DNA from: a virus
Virus genome (UHGV): UHGV-0313797
Direction: 5' to 3' (one strand)
DNA length: 31,126 bases
Each line of letters begins with the position of its first letter. The stretch's first letter is position 1. The position numbers were made by a program, and so were the translations under genes. This document shows, in pieces, positions 1,982-21,600 of this stretch. The notes beneath the pieces are model-generated. The model had not been told where the DNA came from and searched no databases. It was given only the letters and a program-made list of their open reading frames with translations.

Positions 1982-1982
1982 T

Positions 1983-3731
1983 ATGACAGTGGCAAATTAT
2001 AATTCTCTTGTCCAGAAAACTTTCTGCGAAAATGCAATTCGTTCCGTTGTCATGATTGATGACGATTTTCTGACGTATTCTGAATCAATCAGGGCGTTGA
2101 ATAACGAAGTTGATTTAGACTACAACAAAATTGACTCATCTAAACGAGCCGCTACTCTTGAGAGCTTTTTTCAATCTAAAAATATGATTTGTGATGTTGA
2201 CAATGGTTCTGTTAATTTCGATGTGGATCGGATTAGAAAATCAGATCTTATTATTGTAGATTATCATCTTGATAATAATGCACCTGATAAAACACTTAAA
2301 CTATTACAAGATTTGAAAGACTCCGATCATTTAAATATGATTGTAATATATACTAGAGAGAATTTAGAAACGGTTTGGATGCAGATATCATCGACTCTCA
2401 AAGGTGCTCTGGATATCAACAGCTTGATCATTGACTACGATAATGAAGATGTCCAAAGTTATTGGGAAGACGTTGTATTACCGAACTTAAATGATAATGG
2501 TAATAAAGCTCTCACAAGAGATGAAACAATAGCCTATATTAAAGACAGTAAGCCTTGTAGAAGAATTAAAAGATTAATACATGATGATGCTGTGTTGAAG
2601 GATCAAAAGGATAAAAACTTCATTGCAAAAATGATTGCAGAATATGCTGTGTCTAGAAATGCAATTATTTCTAGCAACACATCTGGCAATGTCATTCGGG
2701 GTGATGAAAGCGGAGTAAAATGGATTCAATGTGGTAATATCTTTGTCTCCCTATTTCATAAGGTTCAAGATGATCATGAAAACGATGGAGATAGGATTTG
2801 GCAAACTCTCAATGATTCTCTCATTGAATGGAAACCATCTTATTATCAGTTAATAAAATCTGAAATTCAGAATGCAATCGAAGCTGAGGCTTTATCTTTT
2901 GTAAATCATTTGGCTAACGATCATTACGGTCAAGCTGCGTGGTTAAATGAGATATTAAAATCAGACTCGCCTGATATTAGATGTAGAAATATTGACTTTG
3001 TATTTGGTAATTTATCAGAAGAGCTTTATCAAAGACTTAAAAATAATAATACGCTGGATGAATTTATCAAAAGTGTTTTTGATAGCTATTCAAATGAATA
3101 CGCTAACAGCGGAGTTGCTGCATTGCTCCAATATTGCTCTTCAAAAATGGATCTGCCATCAAATAATGATACTTATCACGAAATGTATCATGCTTTAAAT
3201 ATGAATTTGTCTTCAAAGAATTTTGAAGATGGTCATATTTCTACTGGCACTATTTTCTTTGATACAGAGTCGAACAAATGGTATTTATGTGTATCTGCGG
3301 CATGTGATTTGGTTCCTACTCAGGGTAACGACCCTCACCATGTAAGATTAAGTCCGCACAGGCTCATTAAAGTTCTGGAGCTTTTTAACGCCAGTCAGAG
3401 TAAAGCATTGCCATTTGCTGAACATTCGAAATATATATATGTAATGCATAAAAATCAAAGAAAATATCTCTCTATTTTCGAAGGGGATAAAACGCTTCCT
3501 GTTGTTGATTATATGGTGGTGTTGAATCATGGAACAACAGTTGATGGCGAAGAAAAAAATATTATTTCTGCCGTGTTTTTAAGTAATATGGATGGCAACG
3601 TGCAAAATGTTCCTGTCCGACTCAAACTTAAATCTCAACTGAGAACTGGTTATGCAGAAAGATATCAGGCTATAGCGTCTCAGTATAGCTCAAGGATTGG
3701 TGTGGATTATGTATCAATGATGCTACCATAA
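1983..3731 (+). CDS. Receiver (REC)-like domain protein with a large uncharacterized C-terminal region
   Basis: ORF 1965..3731; preferred start is the ATG at 1983, 7 nt after a GGAG. N-terminus has VVMIDDD (acidic pair), then IIVDYHLD (candidate phospho-acceptor Asp) and IVIYT (conserved Thr), a receiver-like pattern with longer spacing than canonical. Residues 150-582 have no motif I recognise. Immediately follows the kinase-like gene. Confidence 0.5.
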   Translation: MTVANYNSLVQKTFCENAIRSVVMIDDDFLTYSESIRALNNEVDLDYNKIDSSKRAATLESFFQSKNMICDVDNGSVNFDVDRIRKSDLIIVDYHLDNNAPDKTLKLLQDLKDSDHLNMIVIYTRENLETVWMQISSTLKGALDINSLIIDYDNEDVQSYWEDVVLPNLNDNGNKALTRDETIAYIKDSKPCRRIKRLIHDDAVLKDQKDKNFIAKMIAEYAVSRNAIISSNTSGNVIRGDESGVKWIQCGNIFVSLFHKVQDDHENDGDRIWQTLNDSLIEWKPSYYQLIKSEIQNAIEAEALSFVNHLANDHYGQAAWLNEILKSDSPDIRCRNIDFVFGNLSEELYQRLKNNNTLDEFIKSVFDSYSNEYANSGVAALLQYCSSKMDLPSNNDTYHEMYHALNMNLSSKNFEDGHISTGTIFFDTESNKWYLCVSAACDLVPTQGNDPHHVRLSPHRLIKVLELFNASQSKALPFAEHSKYIYVMHKNQRKYLSIFEGDKTLPVVDYMVVLNHGTTVDGEEKNIISAVFLSNMDGNVQNVPVRLKLKSQLRTGYAERYQAIASQYSSRIGVDYVSMMLP

Positions 3732-4257: not shown

Positions 4258-5487
4258 TTAGGCTACCAGAGCATTTGATCTTTGAGCTTGAAGGTAATCA
4301 CTCCACCATTGCATCAAACTCTGTCGCTCTATCAGATATTCTGCACGATTGTATGCTGCGATAATTTCATCTTTTTTCGAGTGGGCAAGCGCTGCCTCAA
4401 GAACTTCAGCTCTGAATTTACCAGACTCCTCTGCCGCTGTTCGTGCAATAGAACGCATACCGTGAGCTACAAGCTCGCCTCCGAACCCCATTCGGATGAT
4501 AGCTGCGTTGGCTGTTTGTTCATGCATATGATTAAGAGGCGCTTTTATGCTGGGGAAAACCCATTCTCTATGCCCACTTATTGATTTCATTAATTCAAGG
4601 ATGCGCAAAGCTTCTTTACTCAAAGGAACTTTGTGAAGCTTTTTCATTTTCATGAAATCAGCAGGAATGTTCCAAATGCTGTTGGTTGTATCAATATCAG
4701 ACCACCTTGCGCGAACGGCTTCACCCGGACGAACCCATGTCAACAATTGCCATTCAATTAGCATACGTGTTTCCAACCGGATTGACGCATTCGTCAAAGA
4801 TTCCATAAACCTTGGCAATTCGCTTGGGGGAAGGGCAGGCATATTTTGCTTTTTTGGTTTACTGAATCTTTGACCAAGGTTGTCAGCCGGGTTGAACTCA
4901 ATAAGTTCTTCAGTAGCTGCCCACCGGAAGATTTCATTCAGACGTGAAATGATACGGCGTAGAGTTTCCAATACGCCTCGTTGCTCAATAGGATCAAGGT
5001 GTTGTTTTAAGAGCTTAGGTCGGATCTCATTGATAGGGACATTACCCAGACCGGGAAAGACATTTCTCTCTAAGCTGCGCCAGATGTCTGCTGCATGGTC
5101 TTGTGAGATACCTGATGTCTTTACCTTCTCATCTAACCATTTCCGCGCTACGGCTTGGAGAGTGTGCTCAGTAGCACTCTTTAATGCCTTCGCCTTATCG
5201 TTGTTATGGATTTGGGGATCAACACCATTTGCCAGAAAGGAGAGATATTCATCACGTAAGGCTCTGGCTCTTGCAAGGGTAAGGTGAGGATATGTCCCAA
5301 GGCTCATTTTGGTTCTTTTCTTGCTCACTGGTACTGCATACCTGAAATACCAATTTTTCTTGCCTCCTTTCGCCAAAGGAGCGATTCGTAGAATCAGACC
5401 ATCACCGTCAAACAAGTTGATTTCTTTATCGGCTGGCTTGGTGCTTTTGATTTCAGTGTCAGTGAGCTTCTTAGCGATTTTTGCCAT
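4258..5487 (-). CDS. Tyrosine recombinase, P4-type integrase family
   Basis: ORF 4258..5529 trimmed to the ATG preceded by GGAGGG (MAKIAKKLTDTEIKS...). N-terminus resembles the P4-integrase N-terminal domain (LTDTEIKSTKPADKE...LFDGDGLILRI); catalytic-domain-like C-terminus (HGMRSIARTAAEE, AHS...AAYNRAEY). Sits directly downstream of a tmRNA 3' end copy, as CP4-57 intA does at ssrA. Confidence 0.85.
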   Translation of the reverse strand: MAKIAKKLTDTEIKSTKPADKEINLFDGDGLILRIAPLAKGGKKNWYFRYAVPVSKKRTKMSLGTYPHLTLARARALRDEYLSFLANGVDPQIHNNDKAKALKSATEHTLQAVARKWLDEKVKTSGISQDHAADIWRSLERNVFPGLGNVPINEIRPKLLKQHLDPIEQRGVLETLRRIISRLNEIFRWAATEELIEFNPADNLGQRFSKPKKQNMPALPPSELPRFMESLTNASIRLETRMLIEWQLLTWVRPGEAVRARWSDIDTTNSIWNIPADFMKMKKLHKVPLSKEALRILELMKSISGHREWVFPSIKAPLNHMHEQTANAAIIRMGFGGELVAHGMRSIARTAAEESGKFRAEVLEAALAHSKKDEIIAAYNRAEYLIERQSLMQWWSDYLQAQRSNALVA

Positions 5488-5652
5488 TTTGGGACCCTCG
5501 GTTTTTGGACCCTTCTTAGTGGGTCCCATTCAGGGTGCCATAACTCGTAGTTCTCAGCAATTCTCACTGGACGACAATAGACGTAAAAAAGCCCGCAGAG
5601 CTTGTGCTGTGTGGGCTTAGTAGACTTCATTGAACTTCAAACAACTAAAAAG

Positions 5653-5752: not shown

Positions 5753-6844
5753 TTAGACTGTGTTAGGCATTTTTACGTCGTTAAACTTCTTTGTCGCCAT
5801 TTTGCCGCCACTGGAAGCTTTTATAACGTTAGGCTTTGTATATTTATCCCAGTGAGGAGAATAAATCGGACAATCAAGTGTAATATATTGATCAAAAAGA
5901 AATCTAAAGTCTGTTTCATATATATAATTAATTATATGTTCATACGGAGCTAATTCGGCACCATAAATTATCGTTTTTATTTTTCTTGTTAGATATATAC
6001 TTGCCTCAACGAATTCAAGAAAAGCATTTTCTTCGTGAGCAAAAGTAATAATACTGTATTCATTGATCGATATTTTATATCTTGCCCGCATAATACTGTC
6101 GATACAGAGCTTTTCAAAAATCATGGCTGTTTTGTTAGAAACAGAATTTATTATTCTAAGGTACTCCAGTGGTTTATTTTCTGGGGCCAGTTTCCTTGGT
6201 TTTAGTGCGTTATCTATATCTCTAAGTAATACTTCTATTTCTTCTAGGAACTTGCTGCTTGGTTCGAAGTTAGATAGGCTGTGTGGGGCTGAGTTGGGGT
6301 ATATTTTTTTATAGAGCAAGTAAGGATTTGTAATTTTAACTTGATCGGTAGTTGCTATTTTTTCATTATCAATTTCCTTGGACGAAATGATGCTTCCATC
6401 TTTGTTAGATAGATTTAAAATTGTGAAAGTAGATAAGTGGTTTATTTTTTCGATGAAGTTTTTTTCATGAGCCAAATATCTGTCAACGGCATTTTTGCTA
6501 TCAGCTGCTTGTATTTGTGCTTCGGTTTGAATTGTGCGATGAATATTGTTTACTATCGATGCGAGAGGAACAGAACTTGCTAGTAGCAATAAAGGAAACT
6601 TGCTGATCTCATAAAATCTAAAATATCCGTGAGCAGTGAGGACAGGTGTTTTTCCACTCCATGCAAAGTAACCAAAGTAAAAAAATGAAAAAACAGGAAG
6701 TAAAATCGATAACCAAAATAATTTTTGGCGGTATAGATTTCTTTTGTCTAACTTGTACCATCTCCTCCAAATGGAAATGATTAAAATTAATATAATTATT
6801 GTTGCATAAATATAAATGTATATATGGTCAGGATATGTTTTCAT
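5753..6844 (-). CDS. Membrane-anchored hypothetical protein; cargo gene translationally coupled to the prophage integrase
   Basis: 363-aa ORF; its ATG overlaps the int stop codon (ATGA overlap at 6841-6844). N-terminal predicted TM segments (ATIIILILIISIW, LFWLSILLPVFSFFYFGYFAW, FPLLLLASSVPLASIV) followed by about 270 soluble residues with no recognised motif. Visibly AT-rich compared with neighbouring phage genes. Confidence 0.6.
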   Translation of the reverse strand: MKTYPDHIYIYIYATIIILILIISIWRRWYKLDKRNLYRQKLFWLSILLPVFSFFYFGYFAWSGKTPVLTAHGYFRFYEISKFPLLLLASSVPLASIVNNIHRTIQTEAQIQAADSKNAVDRYLAHEKNFIEKINHLSTFTILNLSNKDGSIISSKEIDNEKIATTDQVKITNPYLLYKKIYPNSAPHSLSNFEPSSKFLEEIEVLLRDIDNALKPRKLAPENKPLEYLRIINSVSNKTAMIFEKLCIDSIMRARYKISINEYSIITFAHEENAFLEFVEASIYLTRKIKTIIYGAELAPYEHIINYIYETDFRFLFDQYITLDCPIYSPHWDKYTKPNVIKASSGGKMATKKFNDVKMPNTV

Positions 6845-7863
6845 ACGTGATTTATACTATTTAGTGGGTTTTTGGTTACTGCATCTTCAAGATGTTCAGG
6901 GGAAAAATGTGCATATACCATGGTCATCTTGATATCTGAGTGACCCAATATATCTCTCAATACTAGGATATTTCCGCCGTTCATCATAAAATGGCTGGCG
7001 AATGTATGGCGCAACACGTGAGTGCATTGGCCATCAGGCAGTTCGATACCGGCCCGTTTTACTGCACGCTCAAAGGCTTTTCTGCATGGTGTGAATAACT
7101 TCCCTCTGTTTTTGGGTAGCTCGTTGTACAGATCCTGAGATATCGGTACGGTGCGGTTTTTTTTACCCTTTGTCTTTGTATAGGTAATCCGGTATTTCGA
7201 TAGTTGATGTCCCTGCAGGTTTTCAGCTTCACTCCAACGTGCACCAGTTGCTAGGCATATTTTTGCAATCATCAGCAGACTGGGGCTTTGAGAATCAGCA
7301 CAGGCATCTAGCAGACGTTTAATTTCTTCCGGAGTCAAGAACGCCAGTTCACCTTCAGTAATTTTAAATGTTGGAAGCCCGGCAAGAGGGTTGGGGGCTG
7401 ACCAGTGGCCCAGCTTTTTCAGTGTACCAAAAACCGATGATAGGTTGCGTTGTTCAAGATTTACCGTGCGGGGCTTAACGGGCGACATTAGCGTGCCATC
7501 TTCATTTCGCACTTCACCTTTTAGCCGTGCTTCGCGGTATTTCGTAAAGTCACCGGCAGTCAGCTCTGAAGCGATGGGATCGCCTAGACCATTACAGATA
7601 ATTCTAAGTTTCGCCATGAGGCGCTTGGGGTCTGCGAGTGTTTGACCATATAGGGAATACCACAGCTCAATTAATTCTGATAGGCGTCTGCGATCTTCCT
7701 TTTCCCCCAACCATGGTTTTTTGTTCACTTCTTCCATTGTGAAGCTTTCAAAAGCAATGGCTTCGCCTTTTGTAGCAAATTGCTTACGTACGCGCTTGCC
7801 ATTGCGTCCATTGGGATAGCACTCACACAACCATTTACCGTTTGGCTGTTTTCTGACAGTCAT
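6841..7863 (-). CDS. int: P2-type prophage integrase (tyrosine recombinase)
   Basis: 340 aa; C-terminal catalytic region HVLRHTFASHFMMNGGNILVLRDILGHSDIKMTMVYAHF is typical of P2/186 integrases; size and position next to the repressor gene match the P2-family layout. Confidence 0.9.
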   Translation of the reverse strand: MTVRKQPNGKWLCECYPNGRNGKRVRKQFATKGEAIAFESFTMEEVNKKPWLGEKEDRRRLSELIELWYSLYGQTLADPKRLMAKLRIICNGLGDPIASELTAGDFTKYREARLKGEVRNEDGTLMSPVKPRTVNLEQRNLSSVFGTLKKLGHWSAPNPLAGLPTFKITEGELAFLTPEEIKRLLDACADSQSPSLLMIAKICLATGARWSEAENLQGHQLSKYRITYTKTKGKKNRTVPISQDLYNELPKNRGKLFTPCRKAFERAVKRAGIELPDGQCTHVLRHTFASHFMMNGGNILVLRDILGHSDIKMTMVYAHFSPEHLEDAVTKNPLNSINHV

Positions 7864-7865
7864 GT

Positions 7866-8498
7866 TTAGATACTCTTTATTACTTTGACTGCGCGCCCAA
7901 TAATTTCCACATCATCAGCAGAACACTCGAAAGACGCTTCATCTTGATTTACTACAATCTTATTGCCGGGAATCCGCATGATTTTTGCAATAATAATCAT
8001 TCCATCAATATTGATTAGCCAGAATCCATTGCTGACTTGTTTAACTGATTTATCGATGAGATAACAATCAGTTGGGGTTTCTAAGAACATCGATTCTTCA
8101 TAATGTGCAGGTAATATGCTGTGGTCTAGGAAAATATCTTCATCAATACTGAGTTTTCCATTCTCTAAGGTTCCTTTAGGAATAGATGGAGTTATGAGTT
8201 TGGATAGTGGTTTAATTGCTTGTTTGTTCTCATTATGAGATCTTTTCTCAGGCTCACATCCTCCTTTCATGCTTCCCTGGCCTGTAGCTAACCAAAGCAA
8301 CGAAACACCGGTTTCTAGTGCGCACTGAATTATCCAGTCAGCAGGAAAACTGTCGCGTAACACTCTGTTTGCCATAGTGCTTTTTGAGACATTCAGGTGC
8401 TCGCTTAATGCCTGCTTAGTTGTGAATCCATAAGCCTCAAGCAGCCTCTCAATAGCTGCCTTGCCTCCCGTATCGGAACCCATTCTGATGTTTAACAT
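7866..8498 (-). CDS. cI: Immunity repressor, phage 186 CI-like
   Basis: ORF 7866..8546 trimmed to the ATG preceded by GGAGA (MLNIRMGSD...). N-terminal HTH-like region (CALETGVSLLWLATGQG) resembles 186 CI; divergent from apl and upstream of int as in 186. Confidence 0.75.
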   Translation of the reverse strand: MLNIRMGSDTGGKAAIERLLEAYGFTTKQALSEHLNVSKSTMANRVLRDSFPADWIIQCALETGVSLLWLATGQGSMKGGCEPEKRSHNENKQAIKPLSKLITPSIPKGTLENGKLSIDEDIFLDHSILPAHYEESMFLETPTDCYLIDKSVKQVSNGFWLINIDGMIIIAKIMRIPGNKIVVNQDEASFECSADDVEIIGRAVKVIKSI

Positions 8499-8619
8499 TG
8501 GTAATCTCCATTTGAAAATCTTGAGTCGAGATCGTAATGTCTTCATGTCTCTTGATGTGAGAGTTTAAGAGACGGACTAAAACGAACTAACACGCACACA
8601 AAGTAAGAGATACTGCACT
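8499..8619. promoter_or_regulatory. Lysis-lysogeny switch region (expected face-to-face lytic and lysogenic promoters with operators)
   Basis: 121-bp intergenic region between the divergent cI and apl genes; call is by position and analogy to the 186/P2 switch. Individual promoter hexamers were not resolved. Confidence 0.4.
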
Positions 8620-8894: not shown

Positions 8895-9404
8895 ATGTTT
8901 GATTACAGGATTTCCAAACATCCGCATTTTGATGAAGCCTGTAGAGCTTTTGCACTACGTCACAATATGGCGAAGCTGGCAGAACGTGCAGGAATGAATG
9001 TCCAGACTCTGCGAAACAAACTCAACCCAGATCAACCGCATCAGCTCAATGCGCCAGAAATCTGGCTGCTTACCGATCTGACTGAAGATTCAACGCTGAT
9101 AGATGGTTTTCTGGCACAGATTCACTGCCTTCCATGTGTACCGATTAATGAGGTAGCAAAAGAGAAACTGCCGCATTACGTCATGAGTGCAACCGCAGAG
9201 ATCGGGCGTGTTGCTGCAGGTGCGGTATCTGGCGATGTAAAAACCAGTGCAGGTCGTCGTGATGCTATCAGCAGCATTAACTCTGTAACACGACTGATGG
9301 CGCTGGCTGCTGTTTCATTGCAGGCCCGTTTACAGGCTAACCCTGCGATGGTGAGTGCAGTTGATACCGTGACTGGCCTCGGTGCTTCATTCGGTTTGCT
9401 GTGA
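8895..9404 (+). CDS. cII: CII-like lysogeny establishment activator (186 CII family)
   Basis: 169 aa, the same length as 186 CII; follows apl; RBS AAGGGGG before the ATG. Confidence 0.75.
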   Translation: MFDYRISKHPHFDEACRAFALRHNMAKLAERAGMNVQTLRNKLNPDQPHQLNAPEIWLLTDLTEDSTLIDGFLAQIHCLPCVPINEVAKEKLPHYVMSATAEIGRVAAGAVSGDVKTSAGRRDAISSINSVTRLMALAAVSLQARLQANPAMVSAVDTVTGLGASFGLL

Positions 9405-10695: not shown

Positions 10696-10994
10696 CAAGG
10701 GCAGTGCGTATCCATCAATTAAAAATTGCACCTAAGTATTTCAACGCTGTGGTTGCAGGTCAAAAGACGGCTGAACTTCGTAAAGACGATCGTGGCTATA
10801 AAGTTGGTGATGTTCTTTCTCTTTGCGAATGGAAGCATGGCGTATTTACGGGTAGGGAATGGGCCGCTGTTATCTCTCATGTGCTTCCGGTTAATGACGT
10901 CATGGCAGTTTCAGAACAATGGGTGATGCTGTCAATTCGCCCATTAACCCCATTAGAAGCTTTAGGATATGTTATTGCCGGAGGTGCTGTATGA
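10692..10994 (+). CDS. Small ASCH/DUF3850-like protein
   Basis: ORF 10632..10994 trimmed to the ATG after GGAGG ([41 protein letters not shown]...); motif arrangement recalls DUF3850/ASCH proteins often found beside phage methylases. Domain assignment is from memory. Confidence 0.5.
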
Positions 10995-11848
10995 GCACCA
11001 TCCTGAAATGGGCGGGAAATAAAACCGCCATTATGCCAGAACTGAAAAAACACCTTCCAGCTGGCCCGCGACTGGTTGAACCTTTCGCGGGTTCCTGTGC
11101 GGTGATGATGGAGACGGATTATCCAAGCTATCTGGTTGCGGATATTAATCCTGATTTAATCAACCTCTATAAAAAGGTTGCCGCTGATTGTGAATCGTTT
11201 ATATCTCGCGCCAGAGTTTTATTTGAGAACGCAAACAGGGAGGTAGCTTATTACAACATAAGGCAGGAGTTTAATTACTCAACTGAAATTACTGATTTCA
11301 TGAAAGCGGTATATTTCCTGTATCTCAATCGTCACGGTTACCGTGGTTTATGTCGCTATAACAAGAGCGGGCATTTCAATATTCCCTACGGTAATTATAA
11401 AAATCCGTATTTCCCTGAAAAAGAAATTCGCGCATTTGCAGAAAAAGCCCAGCGGGCAACGTTTATCTGCGCCAGCTTTGATGAAACGCTGGCGATGTTG
11501 AAGGCGGGGGATGTGGTGTATTGCGATCCGCCTTATGACGGTACGTTTTCCGGCTATCACACTGATGGTTTCACTGAAGATGACCAGTATCACCTGGCAT
11601 CCGTTCTTGAACATCGATCATCTGAAGGACATCCGGTCATTGTTTCTAACAGTGACACATCCCTGATTCGTTCGCTGTATCGCAATTTTACTCACCACTA
11701 TATCAAGGTAAAACGCAGCATCGGTGTGGCAGCTGGCGAGTGTAAATCAGCAACAGAAATCATCGCTGTTTCCGGGCCGCGCTGCTGGGTGGGATTTGAT
11801 CCTTCGCGTGGCGTGGATAGTTCTGCCGTGTACGGAGTGCGTGCATGA
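10991..11848 (+). CDS. dam: DNA adenine methyltransferase, Dam family
   Basis: ORF 10919..11848 trimmed to the ATG after [16 protein letters not shown]..., [28 protein letters not shown] and catalytic VYCDPPY align closely with E. coli Dam. Confidence 0.9.
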
Positions 11849-14259
11849 GCCATGCTGATATGAACAACTGCAGCGGCTTTAACGAGGTCGCAGCAGCATT
11901 CTCATGGAGCAGCCCGAAAAAGGCCATTAACCCTTATCTGGACCCGGCGGAAGTTGCGCCGGTTTCTGCGCTTTCAAACCTGATCACTCTGTACGCTGCC
12001 GATAACGAGCAGGAACAGCTGCGCCGTGAGGCGCTGAGTGATCAGGTCTGGGAGCGTTATTTCTTTAATGAATCCCGTGATCCTGTCCAGCGCGAAATCG
12101 AGCAGGATAAGCTCATTAGTCGGGCAAAGCTGGCGCATGAGCAGCAGCGTTTTAATCCGGATATGGTCATTCTGGCGGACGTCAACGCCCAGCCTTCCCA
12201 TATCAGCAAGCCGCTGATGCAACGTATTGAATACTTCAGCAGCCTGGGCAGGCCAAAGGCTTATTCCCGCTATTTGCGTGAGACGATTAAGCCATGTCTG
12301 GAACGACTGGAGCATGTACGCGAGAGTCAGCTATCCACTTCTTTTCGCTTTATGGCAAGCCATGAAGGGCTGGACGGCCTGCTGATCCTGCCTGAAATGA
12401 GTCAGGATCAGGTGAAGCGCCTGTCTACCCTTGTTGCCGCGCATATGAGCATGTGCCTTGATGCAGCTTGTGGTGATTTGTATGCCACCGATGACGTTAA
12501 GCCAGAAGAAATCCGCAAGACATGGGAAAAGGTGGCAGCGGAAACCCTGCGTCTGGATGTAATCCCTCCTGCGTTTGAGCAACTCCGTCGGAAAAGAAAC
12601 CGCCGTAAACCCGTGCCCTATGAACTCATTCCGGGTTCGCTGGCGCGTATGTTGTGCGCCGACTGGTGGTATCGGAAATTATGGAAGATGCGTTGCGAAT
12701 GGCGGGAAGAGCAGTTGCGTGCTGTCTGCCTGGTCAGCAAAAAAGCATCTCCCTATGTCAGCTATGAAGCCGTGATGCATAAACGTGAGCAGCGCCGTAA
12801 GTCGCTGGAGTTTTTCCGTTCTCATGAACTGGTGAACGAAGACGGCGACACGCTGGACATGGAGGATGTGGTAAACGCCAGCAGCAGCAACCCGGCGCAT
12901 CGCCGCAATGAGATGATGGCCTGTGTTAAAGGTCTGGAGCTTATCGCGGAAATGCGCGGTGACTGCGCCGTTTTCTACACCATCACCTGTCCGTCACGTT
13001 TCCATTCCACGCTCAATAACGGCAGACCAAACCCGACCTGGACAAACGCGACGGTAAGACAAAGCAGCGATTATCTGGTCGGCATGTTTGCTGCATTTCG
13101 TAAGGCGATGCACAAAGCCGGGTTGCGCTGGTATGGCGTGCGGGTGGCTGAGCCGCATCATGACGGCACAGTTCACTGGCACCTGTTGTGTTTCATGCGC
13201 AAAAAAGACCGCCGTGCCATCACTGCATTACTGCGTAAGTTTGCCATCCGTGAAGACCGCGAGGAGCTGGGCAATAACACTGGGCCGCGCTTTAAGTCTG
13301 AGTTGATTAACCCGCGCAAAGGAACGCCAACAAGCTACATCGCGAAATACATCAGTAAGAACATTGACGGGCGTGGTCTGGCTGGCGAGATCAGCAAGGA
13401 AACGGGGAAATCCCTGCGTGATAATGCTGAATACGTTAATGCCTGGGCGTCTCTGCATCGTGTTCAGCAATTCCGCTTCTTTGGCATTCCGGGGCGTCAG
13501 GCTTACCGTGAACTGCGATTGCTGGCTGGTCAGGCGGCAAGGCAACAGGGGGACAAAAAAGCAGGTGCGCCGGTACTGGATAACCCACGCCTTGATGCCA
13601 TCCTGGCTGCTGCTGATGCTGGTTGTTTTGCCACCTACATCATGAAGCAGGGCGGCGTACTGGTTCCCCGCAAATATCACCTCATCAGAACCGCTTATGA
13701 AATCAACGAAGAGCCGACCGCCTATGGCGATCACGGCATTCGTATTTATGGCATCTGGTCACCTATTGCAGAGGGCAAGATCTGCACTCATGCCGTGAAG
13801 TGGAAAATGGTTCGTAAGGCCGTTGATGTTCAGGAGGCGGCAGCTGACCAGGGCGCTTGCGCCCCTTGGACTCGTGGCAATAACTGTCCCCTTGCTGAAA
13901 ATTTGAACCAACAGGAGAAAAACAAATCAGCTGATGGGGATACCAGAACGGATATCACCCGCATGGATGACAAAGAGTTGCACGAATACCTGCACAGTAT
14001 GAGCAAAAAAGAGCGCCGGGAACTGGTAGAAAGGTTACGCCTGGTTAAACCGAAACGGCGTAGAGACTACAAACAGCGAATTACAGACCATCAACGACAG
14101 CAGCTCGTCTATGAACTGAAATCCAGAGGATTTGATGGCAGCGAGAAAGAGGTCGATTTACTCCTTCGCGGCGGCAGTATTCCGTCAGGAGCAGGCCTGC
14201 GTATCTTCTATCGGAACCAGCGTTTGCAGGAAGATGATAAGTGGCGGAACCTGTATTAA
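11845..14259 (+). CDS. A: Replication initiation endonuclease, P2 gpA family (rolling-circle initiator)
   Basis: 804 aa, last gene of the early operon; contains [13 protein letters not shown] (HUH-type metal-binding motif) and downstream tyrosines (SYIAKYISK); position before the cargo locus matches P2/186 gene A. Confidence 0.85.
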
Positions 14260-14351
14260 TTACGCTGGTTAACAATTCGTGCTCTTAATAATACCAGGCA
14301 TATCAGGCTGATAAGCGTAAAAAAACGTTTTACATCAGTAAGATTATTATA

Positions 14352-14371
14352 TACTGTAAATATAAACAGTG
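14352..14371. promoter_or_regulatory. LexA (SOS) box
   Basis: TACTGTAAATATAAACAGTG: CTGT-N8-ACAG with an AT-rich spacer, matching the LexA consensus; lies about 40 bp upstream of the small ORF at 14413. Confidence 0.6.
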
Positions 14372-14412
14372 GTTATGCATACAGTATTGCGTGTGGTGTC
14401 ATAGGAGGAAAG

Positions 14413-14601
14413 ATGCAGGACTATTTTTTGGAGTCTTTGAAGCTCCAGCGCATTGATTTTTTTCTTAAGCTTGTAGCGGCTAGTGAGTGCGATGATGAAG
14501 AGAAGCGGCTTGCTATCCAGTGGGTTTCGGAGCTGACCGATGAGTTAATGGCGAAAATCCGTACTCATGAGTACAACCGTTCAATGGATCTCCCCGGTTA
14601 G
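14413..14601 (+). CDS. Small SOS-controlled protein; candidate Tum-like antirepressor
   Basis: 62-aa ORF with a strong RBS (AGGAGG, 6 nt spacer); preceded by the LexA box; in the position of the LexA-regulated tum gene of phage 186. Sequence identity to Tum was not verified. Confidence 0.45.
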   Translation: MQDYFLESLKLQRIDFFLKLVAASECDDEEKRLAIQWVSELTDELMAKIRTHEYNRSMDLPG

Positions 14602-15186
14602 GCTTAGGAACGTTGCTGGCGTTAGGACTTGATTCTGACGCTAGCAAGGTTGATCAACGAGCCATGCGAGGCGTTAGTCATGGGCAAAAAAATAGTAACT
14701 TCCAGATTTTGTTTCGTGCCAGGTATTGAGTAGTTTTATCGCCAGAGGGGCTGTTAGCGCTCAAACTACTAATGGAGCCACACCTTAGATGAGTGATTTG
14801 GCTTAAGCTATGATTATATAGTTTCGCTGTACGGCGGCCTTGCTTTTTATTGAAGCGACCAGACTGGAACAACGGCGAAAGGAGACTAACGATACGCACC
14901 AGTTTTTTGAAAAGGTACAGTTATCTAGATTGGTTGCCAATTTTCGTTGAAACCTGACATACCATTAGGTCATTGCTTTAGAAAAATTAATACTTGATGT
15001 GAGAATTGCTTCAAAACATCTAGAATTAAAATTTCTTTACTAGTATGCTTCACCACTTGGTCGTTGGGTTGAGTGCAAAAGCTAAGGCTGATGCCCAGTA
15101 CGCTATCCGCATTATTGCCAGAGAACCGATTCGAAACCGGAATCTGGCAGAGCATGGGCGCAAGTGCTGGCTTCCCAACGGCCTCG

Positions 15187-16155
15187 TTATTTATAATATG
15201 CTGACTTCAAAACCACTCGTCTTTCAACCTGCTGTGATAGCATTACCGCGTTAGTCCAATCTTTTGGATACCTTATTTCTTCTATAACACGAATATAAGC
15301 ACATACTTTATTTTTTCCTTCTCCTTTGGCATAAGTAACCTCTAGATTATTAAATTTCAATAAGTGCTCTCTTCTTTGGTAAGTAAAACAGCCGTAATCA
15401 CGGACATCAGAAGAAGTAATAGCATGAGTTGAAGGAAACCGAACTAGTAAATTTCTCAAGTAGGGAATAATGTCCAAACTCGTTGCTTTGTTTTCTTCTC
15501 TGCGACTCTTTCTGAACATATGTCTCCAACCCAGCCGTGTAAGCTCGATTTTCCCAAGCACCGGAGATGTGATTTCTTTCTGTTCAGAATAACGTTTTTT
15601 AACAAACGCTCGCCGATTATTAAGTAGTGAGTTTCTTCTTCTTACATGGATTCCTTTTGCTCCAGTTTCACCTGCACGTATCATGGACATACAGCGAGCC
15701 AGGTCAAACCGTGTAGCCGGAGTGATTAAGTGATATTCTCCATAAGTTTGGTTTTTAAGGGTAGTGTTTGGATGTATATAGGCCCAAAATGCTTTACGAT
15801 TAGTTCTGTCAACCCAAACGACACATATATGGTGAGTTGTCCTTTTGGCTGCTTTTTTTGCGGCCGAATTTAATACAAAACCTTTCTCTAATAAATGACC
15901 ATAAGTTGCCCCTGATTTAACTTGCGACAATATAAGCATTCTTTCTTTTGATGCCCATGGATGTTCGAAGGATAATATTAAATCTATTTTTGAATTGTCG
16001 TCTTCCCTGGAACCCCAGTGCCCCTCTCCTCTACAAGCAAGAATGAATTGACTCATTGCATAAGATTCGGCGTCACTGCCGTTAACTGAGTTAAACTGTC
16101 TTGTTTCTAGCACAGTTGGTATTGGTCGTGATGCAAGTAAACTGAAAGATCCCAC
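15187..16155 (-). CDS. Uncharacterized cargo protein in the A-Q variable locus; possible PD-(D/E)xK-like N-terminal region
   Basis: 322-aa ORF starting at a GTG 8 nt downstream of GGAGAG. AT-rich. N-terminal region has GEGHWGSREDDNSKIDLILSFEHP...ERMLILSQVKSG, a D...(Q)xK pattern compatible with a restriction-endonuclease-like fold; a strongly basic segment (IHVRRRNSLLNNRRAFVKKRYSEQKE) follows. No confident family assignment. Confidence 0.55.
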   Translation of the reverse strand: MGSFSLLASRPIPTVLETRQFNSVNGSDAESYAMSQFILACRGEGHWGSREDDNSKIDLILSFEHPWASKERMLILSQVKSGATYGHLLEKGFVLNSAAKKAAKRTTHHICVVWVDRTNRKAFWAYIHPNTTLKNQTYGEYHLITPATRFDLARCMSMIRAGETGAKGIHVRRRNSLLNNRRAFVKKRYSEQKEITSPVLGKIELTRLGWRHMFRKSRREENKATSLDIIPYLRNLLVRFPSTHAITSSDVRDYGCFTYQRREHLLKFNNLEVTYAKGEGKNKVCAYIRVIEEIRYPKDWTNAVMLSQQVERRVVLKSAYYK

Positions 16156-16592
16156 TTATAGTTCTCTCCAAAAAATTGCATAATCTCGAACGCTAAAAAA
16201 TAGTATACAAACTAAAGTATTTTTTCATTTAATTCAATGTATTGGCTAAAATTAAGACATTTATAGCTATATGTACTAGATAACATAGCGTTGTTTTCCT
16301 TTTGAAATCTCTTCTTGTGGTAACACAACAGTATTTACTCAAGTAGTTTGTCACTGCATGGGGAGATTTCGCTATGTCCGCGGCATCATACAGATGCGAT
16401 AGATTTTCAGCATGACCTTGGGTAGCAAATCTGTAGGTATCATCCATTGCACCTCAAAGTAACTCTGGTGCATACCTATGCTGCATGAAAATGAATGATC
16501 GCTAGTGGATCGTTTATGTCGAAGCCTGCCAGTTCTGACGGGCTTTTGCTTATGTTATGCAACTGCATGAAAACCACTACACAAAGCGGGCA

Positions 16593-16611
16593 GGCGTGGC
16601 GGGGATACGAG
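16593..16611. other. Candidate cos site (cohesive-end sequence of the P2/186-like genome)
   Basis: GGCGTGGCGGGGATACGAG shares its first 13 nt with the 19-nt cohesive end of phage 186 (GGCGTGGCGGGGAAAGCAT, from memory) and lies in the A-Q interval where P2-like prophages carry cos. Confidence 0.45.
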
Positions 16612-16719
16612 CGCGCGCTGTATGCCTGAAGTGGCTAAAATAGTATCTGTCATAGGTACAACTTAGTGTAGTATCATCCATATAATCCATTGAAATATAA
16701 TCGACTCTCATTAGAGGTG

Positions 16720-17718
16720 ATGATGAACGGAATCTGGTACGAAAACACTCATACACGCATTCCTAATTTTGAAACAACAGTACATCAAAAGCACAAATTC
16801 GGTTACGCTTATGAAACAACAAGTCATTTTGTGCATCTGTATGGGCGTGACGTGGGATTTAATGTAATATCAGTTGGGTTAACTGTTATTGAGCAACGAA
16901 GTGGAACTCTCAATGATTGGGTTCGGAGAGTATTTGGGGCTCAGAACATATCTCCTTTAGATAATGAAATTGGACATGTAACTAGGGGAGTGTGGCGGCC
17001 ATCCTTATATTATGTCAATGATACAGAAACAGCATTAGGTATCGATGAGTTTGAAAAAAGAGCAACAGAGCAAGCTCTAAGAGTTTTGATAGAAAAACTC
17101 GATGATATTTTTCTATATGTAGAACCAAGTGCCCATGGTTTGATTTCTTACAGTCATAAATGTAGAGAGCTATTAATTCTTGCTTGTACTGAGGTTGAAA
17201 ATCAATGGGTGTCAATCATTGGTAATTCGAATTTATCTCGTTCAAATGGTCGATACTCCACAAATGATTATGTGAAATTATTAGATAAGTGTTATTTGTC
17301 TGAATATAAAATTCAATATTTGAATTATGACGGATTAAGGCATTTCAAACCTTTTGATGGGTGGAATGCAAGTACCCCTACAACATCTTTGTCATGGTAT
17401 AATGCATATAATAAAACTAAACATGATAGATCAGGAGCATTCCACTTTTCCACTTTAGAAAATGTAATGGATGCAGTTGCTGCTTGTGTTGTAATGTACT
17501 GTGTAAAATATGGCCCGTTTAGCTTATTGGAAGCCAATACGTCTCTATCAACGATCGTTAATCAAAACTTTTCAATTTCATTAGATAATAGCAATCCAGC
17601 AAGTTATTACATTCCTGAAATTGAACTTCCACCGGATACAAGAACGGATTTATTAATTTATGATTGTTATCGAGAAAACCATAATAAAGCATGGGTCACT
17701 GATCCCCTAGTGCTCTAA
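16720..17718 (+). CDS. Uncharacterized cargo protein with a HEPN-like Rx4H motif; candidate abortive-infection effector
   Basis: ORF 16690..17718 trimmed to the ATG after AGAGGTG (MMNGIWYENTH...). AT-rich. C-terminal region has YNKTKHDRSGAFHFSTLENVMDAVAAC; RSGAFH fits the R-x4-H signature of HEPN RNase domains. Single-motif evidence only. Confidence 0.55.
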   Translation: MMNGIWYENTHTRIPNFETTVHQKHKFGYAYETTSHFVHLYGRDVGFNVISVGLTVIEQRSGTLNDWVRRVFGAQNISPLDNEIGHVTRGVWRPSLYYVNDTETALGIDEFEKRATEQALRVLIEKLDDIFLYVEPSAHGLISYSHKCRELLILACTEVENQWVSIIGNSNLSRSNGRYSTNDYVKLLDKCYLSEYKIQYLNYDGLRHFKPFDGWNASTPTTSLSWYNAYNKTKHDRSGAFHFSTLENVMDAVAACVVMYCVKYGPFSLLEANTSLSTIVNQNFSISLDNSNPASYYIPEIELPPDTRTDLLIYDCYRENHNKAWVTDPLVL

Positions 17719-17728
17719 TTTCCTGCTA

Positions 17729-17758
17729 AAGGGAGCTTTTAATTATAAACGCTCCCTT
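17729..17758. terminator. Hairpin between convergent genes (possible bidirectional terminator)
   Basis: Perfect 8-bp inverted repeat AAGGGAGC / GCTCCCTT around a 14-nt AT-rich loop, located between the stops at 17718 (+) and 17775 (-); no clear U-tract. Confidence 0.35.
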
Positions 17759-17774
17759 CGGTTGTCGCTATTTA

Positions 17775-18748
17775 TTATATATCAATAGAGTTTTGAAATT
17801 TTAATAACTGCCATCTTGTTAATAGTGGTTTTATTGCTATGTTGTGTTGGGTATTTATTTTTAAACCTTCGAATTTCGAATATCCATTTTCCAAGGCTTC
17901 CACTGAAAAATGAATGGTTTTTGTTATCGGGTTTATAGCACAAAGATTTAGGTTATATAAAGTATGAATGTCACTTCTGAGCAATAATCCATTGCTAATA
18001 TGATTGTGACTATCGTTTCGATATACATTAATGTGAGCAGCATCAAGAATATCAACAAGCTTACAGCCCATAACCGCACAAGTAGGATTTGATTTTAATA
18101 GCTGGTCGCGAAATGTTTTTTGCCCACTTCGTTGTTTTATTTGCCGTTCTACAATTTGCCGTTGATCTTCACCCATTAAAGTGGGGGTGTCTTTATCAGC
18201 TTCGCTGGCGTTGAGCTCCAGAATAATAGTATGTTGGGCGGTAAGCAAAGCAACAGCCCATTGATAGTTAACTTCTTGGATGGACATTTGCCCATTGTAG
18301 CGTGGAGTTTCATCTATAAATTGTGACATTGTAATATTGGATAATTTACGGTACTGGTTGCCGCAGTATGCTATAAATTCTTTAGCTGGCTCAAAAACCA
18401 CTCTGGGTTCATCAAATTCATGGCCATTATCACAACGCCACTCTGATTTTATAGTTTTCCTTTGAAGAATTTTTTTGCTTTGCAGTCTAGGTTAATACAT
18501 TTGTTACGCTTCTTATTAATGCTCTGTGTTTCTAATTTTTCAATAACAGATATACCTAAAATATTTTCTCTGTTGGTAATAATAATAATATCACCGTCTT
18601 TTACATTTTTGTGGTTCGCTACAAAACTGTCATAGCGATAGAAAACTGATGAGTCATCGGGATAACTATCATTTCCCCAGTATCTAAGATCGTCTTTCTC
18701 AATTGCCTTAAAAAAAACCATACTTGCTGTACCATGAACTTTTCCCAC
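17775..18748 (-). pseudogene. HNH-family endonuclease (HNH_2-like) split by a frameshift in a homopolymer tract
   Basis: Two consecutive minus-strand ORFs (18449..18748 and 17775..18401) overlap in different frames around a run of 7 A (minus strand) at 18470-18476; one extra A would fuse them into about 320 aa. Downstream part has CAVMGCKLVDILDAAHINVYRNDSHNHISNGLLLRSDIHTLYNLN (C..C...AHI....SNGL.L...H..Y), the signature of McrA-like HNH nucleases. Confidence 0.6.
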
Positions 18749-18805
18749 TAATCAAATTTTGGTTTGTTCTATCGAACAGCAAAGCATGTTGATATACAAG
18801 AGAAA

Positions 18806-19837
18806 TCATCCCAAAGAATATGGCTCAAATCGCAAAATTTTTTGTTCTAACCAGTCATTTACTTCACGCATCCTTTTTTGCAACGGTAATAATTCATTTC
18901 GCACAAACACATTTGCCGCCTTCTCCACATCCCCAAACCCCCCAACATTGCTAGGCATTATCCCCATCATTTGTGGTGGCACACGATGCGCTGCCATCAT
19001 GTCATCCCGACTCACGTTCTTGATGTTAAGAAATTCATCCTTCGCTGCGACTTCTGATAGCGGGATAATCTGAAGCCCGTCTTTTTTGCCGTTAGGCGAG
19101 TACATAAACAGGTTGCGGAAGTTACCCGGACCTTTGGCACTTTTCATCGCGTTGCGGAGGTTGTTTACATCCTCCTGGTTCTGCGCGGCGTCGGTCATGT
19201 ACATGATGAAGCCTGCATGACTGCCGTTGATGTAATACTTACGGCGGAACAGCGTGGCGGACTCATTGAGCAGGGCGGACGGAATGGCAGAAAGATAGCC
19301 GGGCAGGCCGTAGATCTCTTGGTTAATGTCCGGTTCCATCAGATGAAAAATGCTGCCTTTCGTGAACTGATACGGCTGGGTTGTCATACCGTATTGCACA
19401 AACCAGTAGGTATTCAGGTCTAACCCGCGTCGGGTGTATTTTGCCAGAGCAGGCTCAAGGGCGATAACTTCACCGAAGCGGTTCGTGCGTTTCTCCAGGT
19501 AGGCGTTACCAAATACCAGATAGTCCTGCACAAAACGTGAAAAAGCCTGCTGGCTGAGCAGCGGGTGAGGGATGTAGGTACTGGTCAGAATGTTGCATTT
19601 CACCGCAATTGGTGAACTGTGATGCACGGCGGCGCGGAAGGTGCGCGCCAGTCCGTCAAAACTCACTGGCGGCTCATACCAGCGATCTGTCTGTACGCAT
19701 TCCACATAGTCCAGTAGTTCACGGCGGTCCAGAACCGGAACGGGATCGCCGAAGCTGAATGCTTCGGCTGAAGTCTGGTTTTTATGCTGGGTCTGTTTCG
19801 TCGCCGCAGCGAGGTTCTTCTTACTCTTTCCCATCAA
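18806..19837 (-). CDS. Q: Portal protein, P2 gpQ family
   Basis: 343 aa (P2 gpQ is about 344 aa); start overlaps the stop of the upstream terminase gene; position and orientation as in P2. Confidence 0.9.
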   Translation of the reverse strand: MMGKSKKNLAAATKQTQHKNQTSAEAFSFGDPVPVLDRRELLDYVECVQTDRWYEPPVSFDGLARTFRAAVHHSSPIAVKCNILTSTYIPHPLLSQQAFSRFVQDYLVFGNAYLEKRTNRFGEVIALEPALAKYTRRGLDLNTYWFVQYGMTTQPYQFTKGSIFHLMEPDINQEIYGLPGYLSAIPSALLNESATLFRRKYYINGSHAGFIMYMTDAAQNQEDVNNLRNAMKSAKGPGNFRNLFMYSPNGKKDGLQIIPLSEVAAKDEFLNIKNVSRDDMMAAHRVPPQMMGIMPSNVGGFGDVEKAANVFVRNELLPLQKRMREVNDWLEQKILRFEPYSLG

Positions 19838-21600
19838 AAAATCTCCACAATATTGCTGGTATTGGCGGACTCGCCCTGCAGCGGTTCGTTAAACAGTGCG
19901 TGCATTGTTGCCCAGGCCAGATCGGCATGGCTGGCTTCTTCGCTGCGGCTGGCTTCATAGGTCGGGCGGTTGCCGCTGGCGGTGGTGGCGCGACGGATTG
20001 CCATGAATGACTGCGCAATGTCGGTGTGCCCGGCGTCAAACTCAAGACGGCGGTGGCTGATAATGTCGTAGGCCTTGAGTACCAGGGCGTTTTTAACGTT
20101 GGGGTTGTAGACAAACTCCCGGACGGCAGGAAAAAACGCTTTCACGTTCTCGTAAACCCCGTGACCAACGCCGGTTGAGTCGATGCCGATATAGGTCACG
20201 TTGTACTGTTCGGTCAGTTTTTTGATGGCGTCAGCCTGGGCGCGAAAGTCCATTCCGCGCCACTGGTGACGCTCAAGAATGCGGAACTTACCGCCTGGCA
20301 CGGCTGGCGGTGCCACCACCACGCATCCGGCGCTGTCGCCGTTCTGCGTACCTTTTGCCGGGTCATAACCGATCCACACTTCGCGCCAGCCAAACGGGCG
20401 CAGGGCCAGTGCATGAAAGTCGGTCCAGACTTCCCAGCTGTCCACCATGCACGCCTGCAATTCGCTGAGCGGGAACACGGACGCGAGATCGTCCACGAAC
20501 TCGCACATCAGCAGGTTCTGGTATTCGTCAGGGCTGTACTCCATGCGCAACTGGTCAAGGTCGAACAGGTTACAGCCGCCGCGCACCGCATCTTCCACGG
20601 TGACTATCTGGCGGTATTGCCCGTCTGCGCACAGCAGGCCGGGGGCCAGATTGCTGTGGGACAGGTCGATGTCCACCTTGTCAGCTTTGTTGCGCCCACG
20701 GTTGAACAGCGCACCGGACCAGAACGGATAAGCACTGTGGGTCAGACTGGATGGTGTGGAAAAATAGGTCTGCCGCCATTTCTTGTGAATAGCCATACCG
20801 GAAGCCACTTTGCGTAGCTCCTGAAATTTCGGTATCCAGAAATATTCATCCAGATACAGGTTGCCGTGATAACTCTGGGCCGTGCGGGCATTGGTGCCGA
20901 GGAAGTAAAGCGTGGCCCCGTTAGGAAGTACCATCGGATCGCCTTTCAGCTCCACCTCCACTTCTTTGGCGAAGTCGATGATGTACTGCTTAAAGACGTG
21001 GGCCTGTGCCTTACTGGCGGAAAGGAAAATCTGGTTACGCCCGGTAAGCAGGGCGTCAATCAGGGCTTCACGGGCAAAGTAAAAGGTCGCGCCGATCTGG
21101 CGTGACTTCAGCAGGTTGCGGATGCGGTTGGTTTTTCCAGCTTCCCACCAGTGGCGCTGGTAGTTGAACATGGAGGAATGGAAGATTTCTTCCAGTTTCT
21201 CAATCTGTTCATCGGTGAAGACATTTTTTTCCGGCTGACGGCGCGGGCCTTTGTTGCGGTTGGCGACGTTAGGATTTAAGTCGGCTTCGTTGCCGCCATT
21301 GTTAAACTTGCCGATCCGCGCGTGGCGCTCAGACTGGCGCGCCAGCAGGTCAATCTCTTTGAAATCTTTCCCTTCTTTGTGCTCCTTCATAATGAGCTGG
21401 CAGTAGCGTGCGGCGGTGGTGAGCTGCATCTGATCCAGCGGCCCATAGTCACCCCACTTGTCGCGTTTTTTCCAGCTGTGAACGGTTGCAACTTTCTCGC
21501 CCAGCATTTCAGCAATGCGGGCTACGCGGTATCCCTGAAAGTACAGCAGCATGGCCTGCCGACGGGGATCGAGATCTGCGGGTGTCAGTGTGGTGTTCAT
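19834..21600 (-). CDS. P: Terminase large (ATPase) subunit, P2 gpP family
   Basis: 588 aa (P2 gpP is about 590 aa); divergent from the scaffold gene across the late promoter region, as in P2. Confidence 0.9.
   Translation of the reverse strand: MNTTLTPADLDPRRQAMLLYFQGYRVARIAEMLGEKVATVHSWKKRDKWGDYGPLDQMQLTTAARYCQLIMKEHKEGKDFKEIDLLARQSERHARIGKFNNGGNEADLNPNVANRNKGPRRQPEKNVFTDEQIEKLEEIFHSSMFNYQRHWWEAGKTNRIRNLLKSRQIGATFYFAREALIDALLTGRNQIFLSASKAQAHVFKQYIIDFAKEVEVELKGDPMVLPNGATLYFLGTNARTAQSYHGNLYLDEYFWIPKFQELRKVASGMAIHKKWRQTYFSTPSSLTHSAYPFWSGALFNRGRNKADKVDIDLSHSNLAPGLLCADGQYRQIVTVEDAVRGGCNLFDLDQLRMEYSPDEYQNLLMCEFVDDLASVFPLSELQACMVDSWEVWTDFHALALRPFGWREVWIGYDPAKGTQNGDSAGCVVVAPPAVPGGKFRILERHQWRGMDFRAQADAIKKLTEQYNVTYIGIDSTGVGHGVYENVKAFFPAVREFVYNPNVKNALVLKAYDIISHRRLEFDAGHTDIAQSFMAIRRATTASGNRPTYEASRSEEASHADLAWATMHALFNEPLQGESANTSNIVEIF

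Follow-up and report, generated by a model that had tools for sequence, protein, structure and literature searches.

The DNA analyzed here (the window) is a stretch of 31,126 nucleotides, UHGV virus genome UHGV-0313797, and it carries a P2-like prophage. This setting had been proposed in the original prediction, and it is confirmed by Pfam matches and by a gene order in common with Salmonella phage SEN8. The features around the locus of interest are as follows (positions are those of the window).

6841..7863: integrase
7866..8546: CI repressor
8895..9404: CII regulator
10919..11848, plus strand: D12-class (Dam-like) N6-adenine DNA methyltransferase, just upstream of gpA
11845..14259: gpA replication protein
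15187..16155, minus strand: orf322, a cargo gene for 322 aa with no family match, left of cos
16593..16611: cos, identical at 19 of 19 positions to the annotated cos of SEN8
16723..17718, plus strand: gene for a 331-aa protein (phrog_19461), convergent with the HNH locus
17775..18735, minus strand: the HNH locus, very probably a pseudogene, bounded by the ancestral ATG (18733-18735) and the stop codon (17775-17777); colinear with the intact orthologs P0001-P0006 and with SEN8 gp02
18806..19837, minus strand: portal gene of the P2 gpQ type (Pfam Phage_portal, E = 1.6e-16), immediately upstream of the HNH locus on the same strand
19834..21600: terminase

The local order is gpA, orf322 (minus), cos, the 331-aa gene (plus), the HNH locus (minus), and Q (minus), and the order of cos, 331-aa gene, HNH gene, and Q matches gp01-gp02-gp03 of SEN8. 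Members of the HNH family also lie directly downstream of Q in other P2-like prophages of Enterobacterales (L004, L005, L008, and L009). The region between gpA and gpQ is a published P2 defense hotspot (PMC9122126; PMC9519451). The HNH locus has the properties of hotspot cargo, being a variable gene of low GC content between gpA and Q; the two cargo genes (the 331-aa gene and the HNH locus) have 35% GC, compared to 51-56% for core genes. It is a solitary gene, with the portal gene and an unrelated HEPN-like gene as neighbors. The core genes examined (replication, terminase, portal, and scaffold) are full-length ORFs. A promoter and terminator scan of 17600-18900 found fewer promoter-like sites than in shuffled sequences and no informative signal.

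The segment left of cos (14260..16619) is 100% identical to E. coli SW071614, and this match ends at cos. Other E. coli prophages likewise lose their left-side homology to the window at cos, and in prophages that carry the broken HNH allele the cargo there differs, being a P-loop NTPase in one case and a CDI-immunity gene together with an RNase A-like gene in another. Therefore, cos seems to act as a recombination boundary that separates two cargo modules. At the prophage end, immediately downstream of the P2-type integrase, a 363-aa ORF without a Pfam match (5753..6844, minus strand) may be further cargo. Upstream of the prophage are a HEF_HK/HATPase_c and Response_reg_2 gene pair and a separate tyrosine integrase (263..3731, plus strand, and 4258..5529, minus strand), which look like another integrated island adjoining the P2-like prophage.

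The 331-aa protein next to the HNH locus has no Pfam family but has 555 homologs at E <= 0.001 in several phyla, and among the matches listed most are 331-332 aa long. Its AlphaFold2 model is of very high confidence (pLDDT 94). The gene accompanies the HNH gene only in the closest alleles. A two-gene system with the 331-aa protein as partner was considered and rejected: the HNH gene occurs without it (L008-L010), and the 331-aa family is found with no HNH gene in a Pectobacterium ICE, in Acinetobacter islands, and next to a BrnT toxin. The 331-aa gene is probably an independent, uncharacterized HEPN-like defense or abortive-infection gene.

The HNH locus consists of two ORFs that lie in different frames of the minus strand according to the ORF listing. 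The ORFs and the two lesions discussed below are as follows.

18449..18748, minus strand: ORF1, 99 aa, with the first half of a PUA-like domain and only the first Cys pair of a zinc ribbon
18710..18717, minus strand: first lesion, a T8 run that replaces TCCTTT of the intact orthologs (net +2 nt)
18470..18476, minus strand: second lesion, an A7 run (T7 on the plus strand) that is A8 in intact orthologs (-1 nt frameshift)
17775..18401, minus strand: ORF2, 208 aa from its first GTG, with the second half of the PUA-like domain, a linker, and HNH_2

The frame of ORF2 is open upstream to 18491, and it overlaps the frame of ORF1 at 18452-18491, an interval that holds a single A7 run. The overlap of two minus-strand ORFs across this run, as originally described, is thus borne out by the ORF coordinates. 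Adding one A to the run gives an unbroken 324-aa frame that starts at GTG 18748. The repaired protein matches Pfam HNH_2 (PF13391) at residues 224-273 with 27.9 bits (E = 2.1e-6), above the family cut-off of 21 bits, in agreement with the proposal of an HNH_2 nuclease gene broken by a frameshift in an A run. In E. coli genomes, PGAP labels the product of ORF2 "HNH endonuclease," but its choice of start is inconsistent (513-nt or 627-nt versions).

Comparison with orthologs establishes the ancestral state of the gene. With the repaired protein as query, more than 90 single-ORF orthologs of 312-339 aa were recovered from Enterobacterales, with 93-96% query coverage and 48-90% identity. The alignment, which includes many single ORFs of 313-321 aa, runs colinear through the junction (...KC-x4-C-KAKK|ILPRKTIKPEWRCDNGHEF...); therefore, the fusion represents the ancestral gene rather than a chance juxtaposition. 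At the junction, 13 intact orthologs have A8 (GCA AAA AAA ATC/ATT), four have a run interrupted by AAG, and one has GCG followed by A7 in frame. A8 had been suggested as the intact state, and the GCA AAA AAA ATC of these 13 single-ORF orthologs answers that question in the affirmative; the window has therefore lost one A. Among the 13 is gp02 of SEN8 (YP_009785144, "putative HNH endonuclease," PHROG 21425), a true ortholog that is 91.5% identical to P0001 and occupies the same place as the window copy, between cos/gp01 and the portal gene gpQ. It is an uninterrupted ORF of 319 aa with A8, whereas the window copy has T8, A7, and 12 substitutions at conserved sites. The PHROGs entry of the nuclease family, phrog_21425, is of unknown function and is matched by the ortholog over its full length. 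A blastn search of complete E. coli genomes that extended to distant matches recovered 12 broken copies only and no intact allele. Among intact alleles the nearest is L004, with 94.8% DNA identity to the window allele.

Outside the allele group of the window, the orthologs inspected run through this position as single ORFs and have either A8 or an interrupted run there; two are broken elsewhere. One of these, from Enterobacter (L100, 2097-3049), belongs to the same nuclease family and is independently broken by an A8 to A7 change in a different Lys-rich tract (I-K-K-R) ten codons upstream. The other (L102, 284-1211) is broken at residues 74/75 and 272, and its junction A8 is intact. A window-type allele (L101, 2109-3053) carries a third break. 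Together, these alleles suggest that the nuclease gene is lost recurrently, often at A runs.

The second indel near the start codon had escaped the original prediction. Orthologs begin ATG/GTG GTA CAG CAA GCA TGG TCC TTT AAG GCA (MVQQAWSFKA...), and the window reads ATG GTA CAG CAA GTA TGG TTTTTTTT AAG GCA. As a result of this lesion, the near-invariant W6 and S7 are lost or altered, and the ancestral ATG now starts an out-of-frame junk ORF of 38 codons (18619..18735). A Shine-Dalgarno-like GGGA lies 9 nt 5' of the ancestral ATG, as it does in orthologs. The in-frame starts of ORF1, GTG 18748 and ATG 18721, are not ancestral, and ATG 18721 is about 23 nt from the GGGA. The expectation that restoring one base would yield a protein of about 320 aa is therefore correct only in part: one added A does fuse the ORFs (324 aa), but the ancestral protein is not regained, since its own start codon lies out of frame as well.

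Both lesions are fixed in the allele group. Of 5426 complete E. coli genomes, 12 carry the locus (99.3-99.4% identity), and all 12 annotate two CDSs there. Sixteen allele copies were compared (the window, 10 complete E. coli genomes, four IMG/VR contigs, and one Logan contig). T8 is invariant in 16/16, the A run is A7 in 15 and A6 in one (E. coli ET665), and an in-frame (ON) state occurs in 0/16. The FORC_081 copy additionally has an in-frame 3-nt deletion, and the Logan contig copy has T8 and A7 plus a third break. Homopolymers are error-prone on some platforms, and the run in ET665 does differ by one base, as expected if the break were a sequencing or assembly error and the gene were really intact. 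However, the 16 copies share the lesion and come from independent assemblies, which therefore excludes a sequencing error in the window; the 15 other copies originate from differing laboratories and sample types. Read errors do not typically produce a +2 expansion together with two C-to-T changes, and the accumulated non-synonymous changes described next are independent of homopolymers. We consider this explanation extremely improbable.

The gene shows clear signs of decay on both sides of the break. The repaired window protein was compared against 59 intact family members at the 108 alignment columns that are at least 90% conserved. It has 12 substitutions at these columns (A5V, S7F, G23S, V50I, P97S, Y124C, and L139F, and five in the HNH half, R203S, T222M, E231D, A237V, and D261N), while the five closest intact relatives (P0001-P0005) have none; the family averages 2, with at most 8 in any member. 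Codon changes were counted as lineage-specific if they were unique to one lineage and the other three taxa had a codon in common. Synonymous to non-synonymous changes number 3:15 in the window lineage, 5:2 in L004, 4:5 in SEN8, and 24:20 in L006, and the window lineage differs from the pooled intact lineages (33:27; Fisher p = 0.006). Pairwise dN/dS is 0.61 for the window allele and L004, compared to 0.18-0.26 among intact alleles. The catalytic residues H239, N253, and H262, which are invariant in the family, are kept in the window copy; judging by these residues, a truncated product with residual activity may be conceivable. Drift in both gene halves therefore indicates a pseudogene of some age and not a fresh mutation or a working switch.

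A phase-variable switch, in which the length of the A run toggles the nuclease and the present copy is off, would fit the variation in tract length (A7 in 15 copies, A6 in one) and the retention of a slippage-prone A8 in 13 intact ortholog lineages. Against it, all copies are off, and the fixed T8 frameshift would have to revert too. Moreover, dN/dS in the window lineage is about neutral with 12 conserved positions replaced, there are no near-identical ON/OFF pairs (L004 is the nearest intact allele), and A8 has a simple explanation in AAA as the preferred Lys codon of a gene with 35% GC. A switch is quite unlikely on these grounds. A related idea is that the A8 tract of most intact orthologs is a mutational fuse or contingency tract for frequent and reversible shut-off of a nuclease that has turned autotoxic, with the window allele stuck off. 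We regard this idea as doubtful and give it little weight; the trigger of autotoxicity may be a host or co-resident element that acquires the target DNA modification. Dcm or Dam autotoxicity was also considered as the cause of inactivation and was not adopted, as intact alleles live in Salmonella and other enterobacteria, which have both methylases. Thus, neither a sequencing error nor a working phase switch fits well with fixation, the second fixed lesion, and relaxed constraint. Among the three explanations first offered for the break, the data point to a true inactivating mutation.

Programmed -1 ribosomal frameshifting or transcriptional slippage at A7 would allow both ORF1 alone and a full-length fusion to be made. 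The sequence gcA AAA AAA ttc is a perfect X_XXY_YYZ heptamer in the register of ORF1, and a -1 shift on it yields the orthologous sequence; the T8 run likewise provides T_TTT_TTA, where a -1 shift regains the frame from the ancestral ATG. Any 1-nt homopolymer deletion gives rise to such a heptamer by construction, however, and the two-ORF layout is limited to one allele group, with no conservation of the slippery site across diverged orthologs, as would be expected of programmed -1 frameshift genes of the dnaX, IS911, and phage tail chaperone types. The region 3' of A7 has no stimulatory structure, with a minimum free energy, calculated without pseudoknots, of -14.6 kcal/mol compared to a shuffle mean of -16.1 (z = +0.55). 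Use of the native start would need two low-efficiency slips in succession, and substitutions at conserved residues have accumulated before and after A7 alike. Recoding as a programmed mechanism is thus very unlikely. Because each lesion forms a perfect -1 slippery heptamer, the full-length enzyme may conceivably still be produced in traces, although we give this little weight.

The domains of the intact protein locate the break more precisely. In the coordinates of the window they are as follows.

18240..18735, minus strand: PUA-superfamily (EVE/YTH-like) reader region, residues 1-165 of P0001
18420..18499, minus strand: zinc-ribbon insert, defined by invariant alignment columns; the Zn_ribbon_RlmA match is weak (E = 0.065, below threshold)
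17931..18080, minus strand: HNH_2 nuclease motif C..GC...AAHI...NGLLLRSDIH (PF13391, 27.9 bits; family profile against VcaM4I)

The intact form, represented by the 319 aa of SEN8 gp02, has a PUA-superfamily domain with a Cys2-Cys-His zinc-ribbon insert, a linker, and HNH_2. The N-terminal part of about 90 aa had been described as lacking an assigned fold, which does not hold: a fold can be assigned, and the 90 aa are half of a domain of about 165 residues. In the numbering of the repaired 324-aa protein, C84 and C89 precede the A7 lesion and C106 and H110 follow it; these four residues are invariant, which fits a zinc ribbon that straddles the break. The A7 break is therefore internal to the zinc ribbon and interrupts the reader domain midway rather than at its border with another domain.

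A search of the PDB with the family profile matched a single sequence, the HNH domain of VcaM4I (6yex; E = 6e-11), with the common motif RRGQ..FR...C.VTG...AAHI...NGLLL..D.H.LFD. Only the HNH part was matched; the reader domain had no PDB match by sequence search, and fold comparison was therefore used for it. The AlphaFold2 model of the HNH half has low confidence (pLDDT 36-63 over residues 170-260), and the nuclease assignment is therefore based on sequence. PADLOC returned generic HNH models and no named defense system. The NCBIfam name "phosphorothioate-DNA restriction endonuclease" was not adopted, because the match is below threshold (21 bits for a cut-off of 180 bits). [quoted passage not shown] Orthologs encode it as a single polypeptide, but the T8 and A7 frameshifts prevent this in the window copy, which is therefore a pseudogene of a PUA-HNH member and not a functional member.

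The domain layout also bears on the annotation of the locus as two genes. If the locus encoded two working products, one a small N-terminal protein and the other an independent HNH nuclease, this would agree with the two CDSs called by PGAP in 12/12 E. coli genomes and with the catalytic H/N/H retained in ORF2. On the other hand, the break is intradomain and parts zinc-ribbon halves and PUA-like barrel halves, ORF2 has no conserved start, and ORF1 is without its native start and Shine-Dalgarno spacing. Conserved sites are substituted in both halves, and the other split relatives (L100 and L102) are broken at other places; therefore, these are independent lesions and not a conserved split. Two functional genes are a highly unlikely arrangement. 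In our judgment, which we hold with considerable confidence, the locus is a decayed, twice-frameshifted pseudogene of a single-gene, prophage-borne nuclease with a PUA-like/zinc-ribbon/HNH_2 architecture and a presumed type IV restriction function.

The position of the gene between cos and the portal and terminase genes could point to a packaging-associated HNH endonuclease similar to HK97 gp74, which would aid terminase at cos. HNH proteins of the packaging type have a length of only about 100-120 aa and no reader domain, which counts against such a role. The gene is also accessory: among 5426 complete E. coli genomes, 12 have it, compared to 1263 that match neighboring P2-type sequence, and its GC content is foreign to core genes. 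Near-full-length protein matches occur in Myxococcota, Burkholderiales, Cyanobacteria, Bacteroidota, and other groups, and a tblastn check detected no P2-type portal, terminase, or replication genes beside these relatives. In addition, this gene is broken although the core genes examined in the same prophage have their full length. A packaging role can be considered almost certainly wrong.

PUA-HNH fusions are established modification-dependent restriction enzymes (PMC6765204). The closest known systems are the modification-dependent EVE-HNH restriction enzymes of the VcaM4I and TspA15I group (6yex; PMC7897488; PMC6765204). They have a like order of N-terminal reader, linker, and C-terminal HNH_2-type nuclease (EVE 1-147, linker 148-178, and HNH 179-309 in VcaM4I; PMC7897488), a similar length (309 aa compared to 319 aa), and a single gene without an adjacent methyltransferase. 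The HNH region of VcaM4I is recognizably homologous to that of the present family, but the readers have no detectable sequence similarity and match in fold only (11-14% identity). The reader of the present family has a Cys2-Cys-His zinc-ribbon insert, whereas VcaM4I has no zinc ribbon; the word "zinc" is absent from the main text of both papers (PMC7897488; PMC6765204). The present family also differs from this group in being carried in the cos-proximal hotspot of P2, where the window copy is a pseudogene. Other systems are more remote. The N-terminal YTH/EVE-like domains of McrB are coupled to a GTPase with McrC as effector instead of HNH, and PD-T4-3, which is 5hmC-specific, combines a PUA-like domain with GIY-YIG instead of HNH; there is no sequence homology to either.

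If the intact protein works in the manner of VcaM4I and other PUA-HNH enzymes, its reader domain would bind a modified base in the DNA of an incoming phage by flipping it into a pocket, and the HNH domains would then cut DNA nearby. A lysogen would in this way gain modification-dependent (type IV) restriction of competing phages. An anti-phage role and dependence on modification are what we infer for the intact protein from this likeness, and it is plausible that this uncharacterized family provides the P2 hotspot with a type IV restriction enzyme of PUA-like/zinc-ribbon/HNH layout. The prophage carries the D12 methyltransferase about 6 kb from the HNH locus, beside the replication gene, which makes Dam-type methylation an unlikely target. 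Salmonella and other enterobacteria carry Dam and Dcm too. If intact alleles are tolerated in these hosts, the target would not be host Dam or Dcm methylation. In the window lineage, the change of TCCTTT to T8 near the start has thrown the native ATG out of frame, and the change of A8 to A7 in the zinc ribbon has cut the reader domain in two. Neutral sequence drift has followed both indels.

Pseudogenes of defense genes were reported to be rare in P2 hotspots in a recent survey (PMC13586616), and the dead copy described here is a minor counter-example. It has persisted long enough for about 18 lineage-specific substitutions, and the dead allele is found beside three different cargo sets across cos. 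This finding is real but ordinary, and it leaves current understanding unchanged. In practical terms, the pair of CDSs that E. coli annotations list as "hypothetical protein" and "HNH endonuclease" very probably represents one dead gene, for which a pseudogene label is due. PHROG 21425, with SEN8 gp02 as its intact representative, is a candidate type IV restriction enzyme in the P2 defense hotspot.
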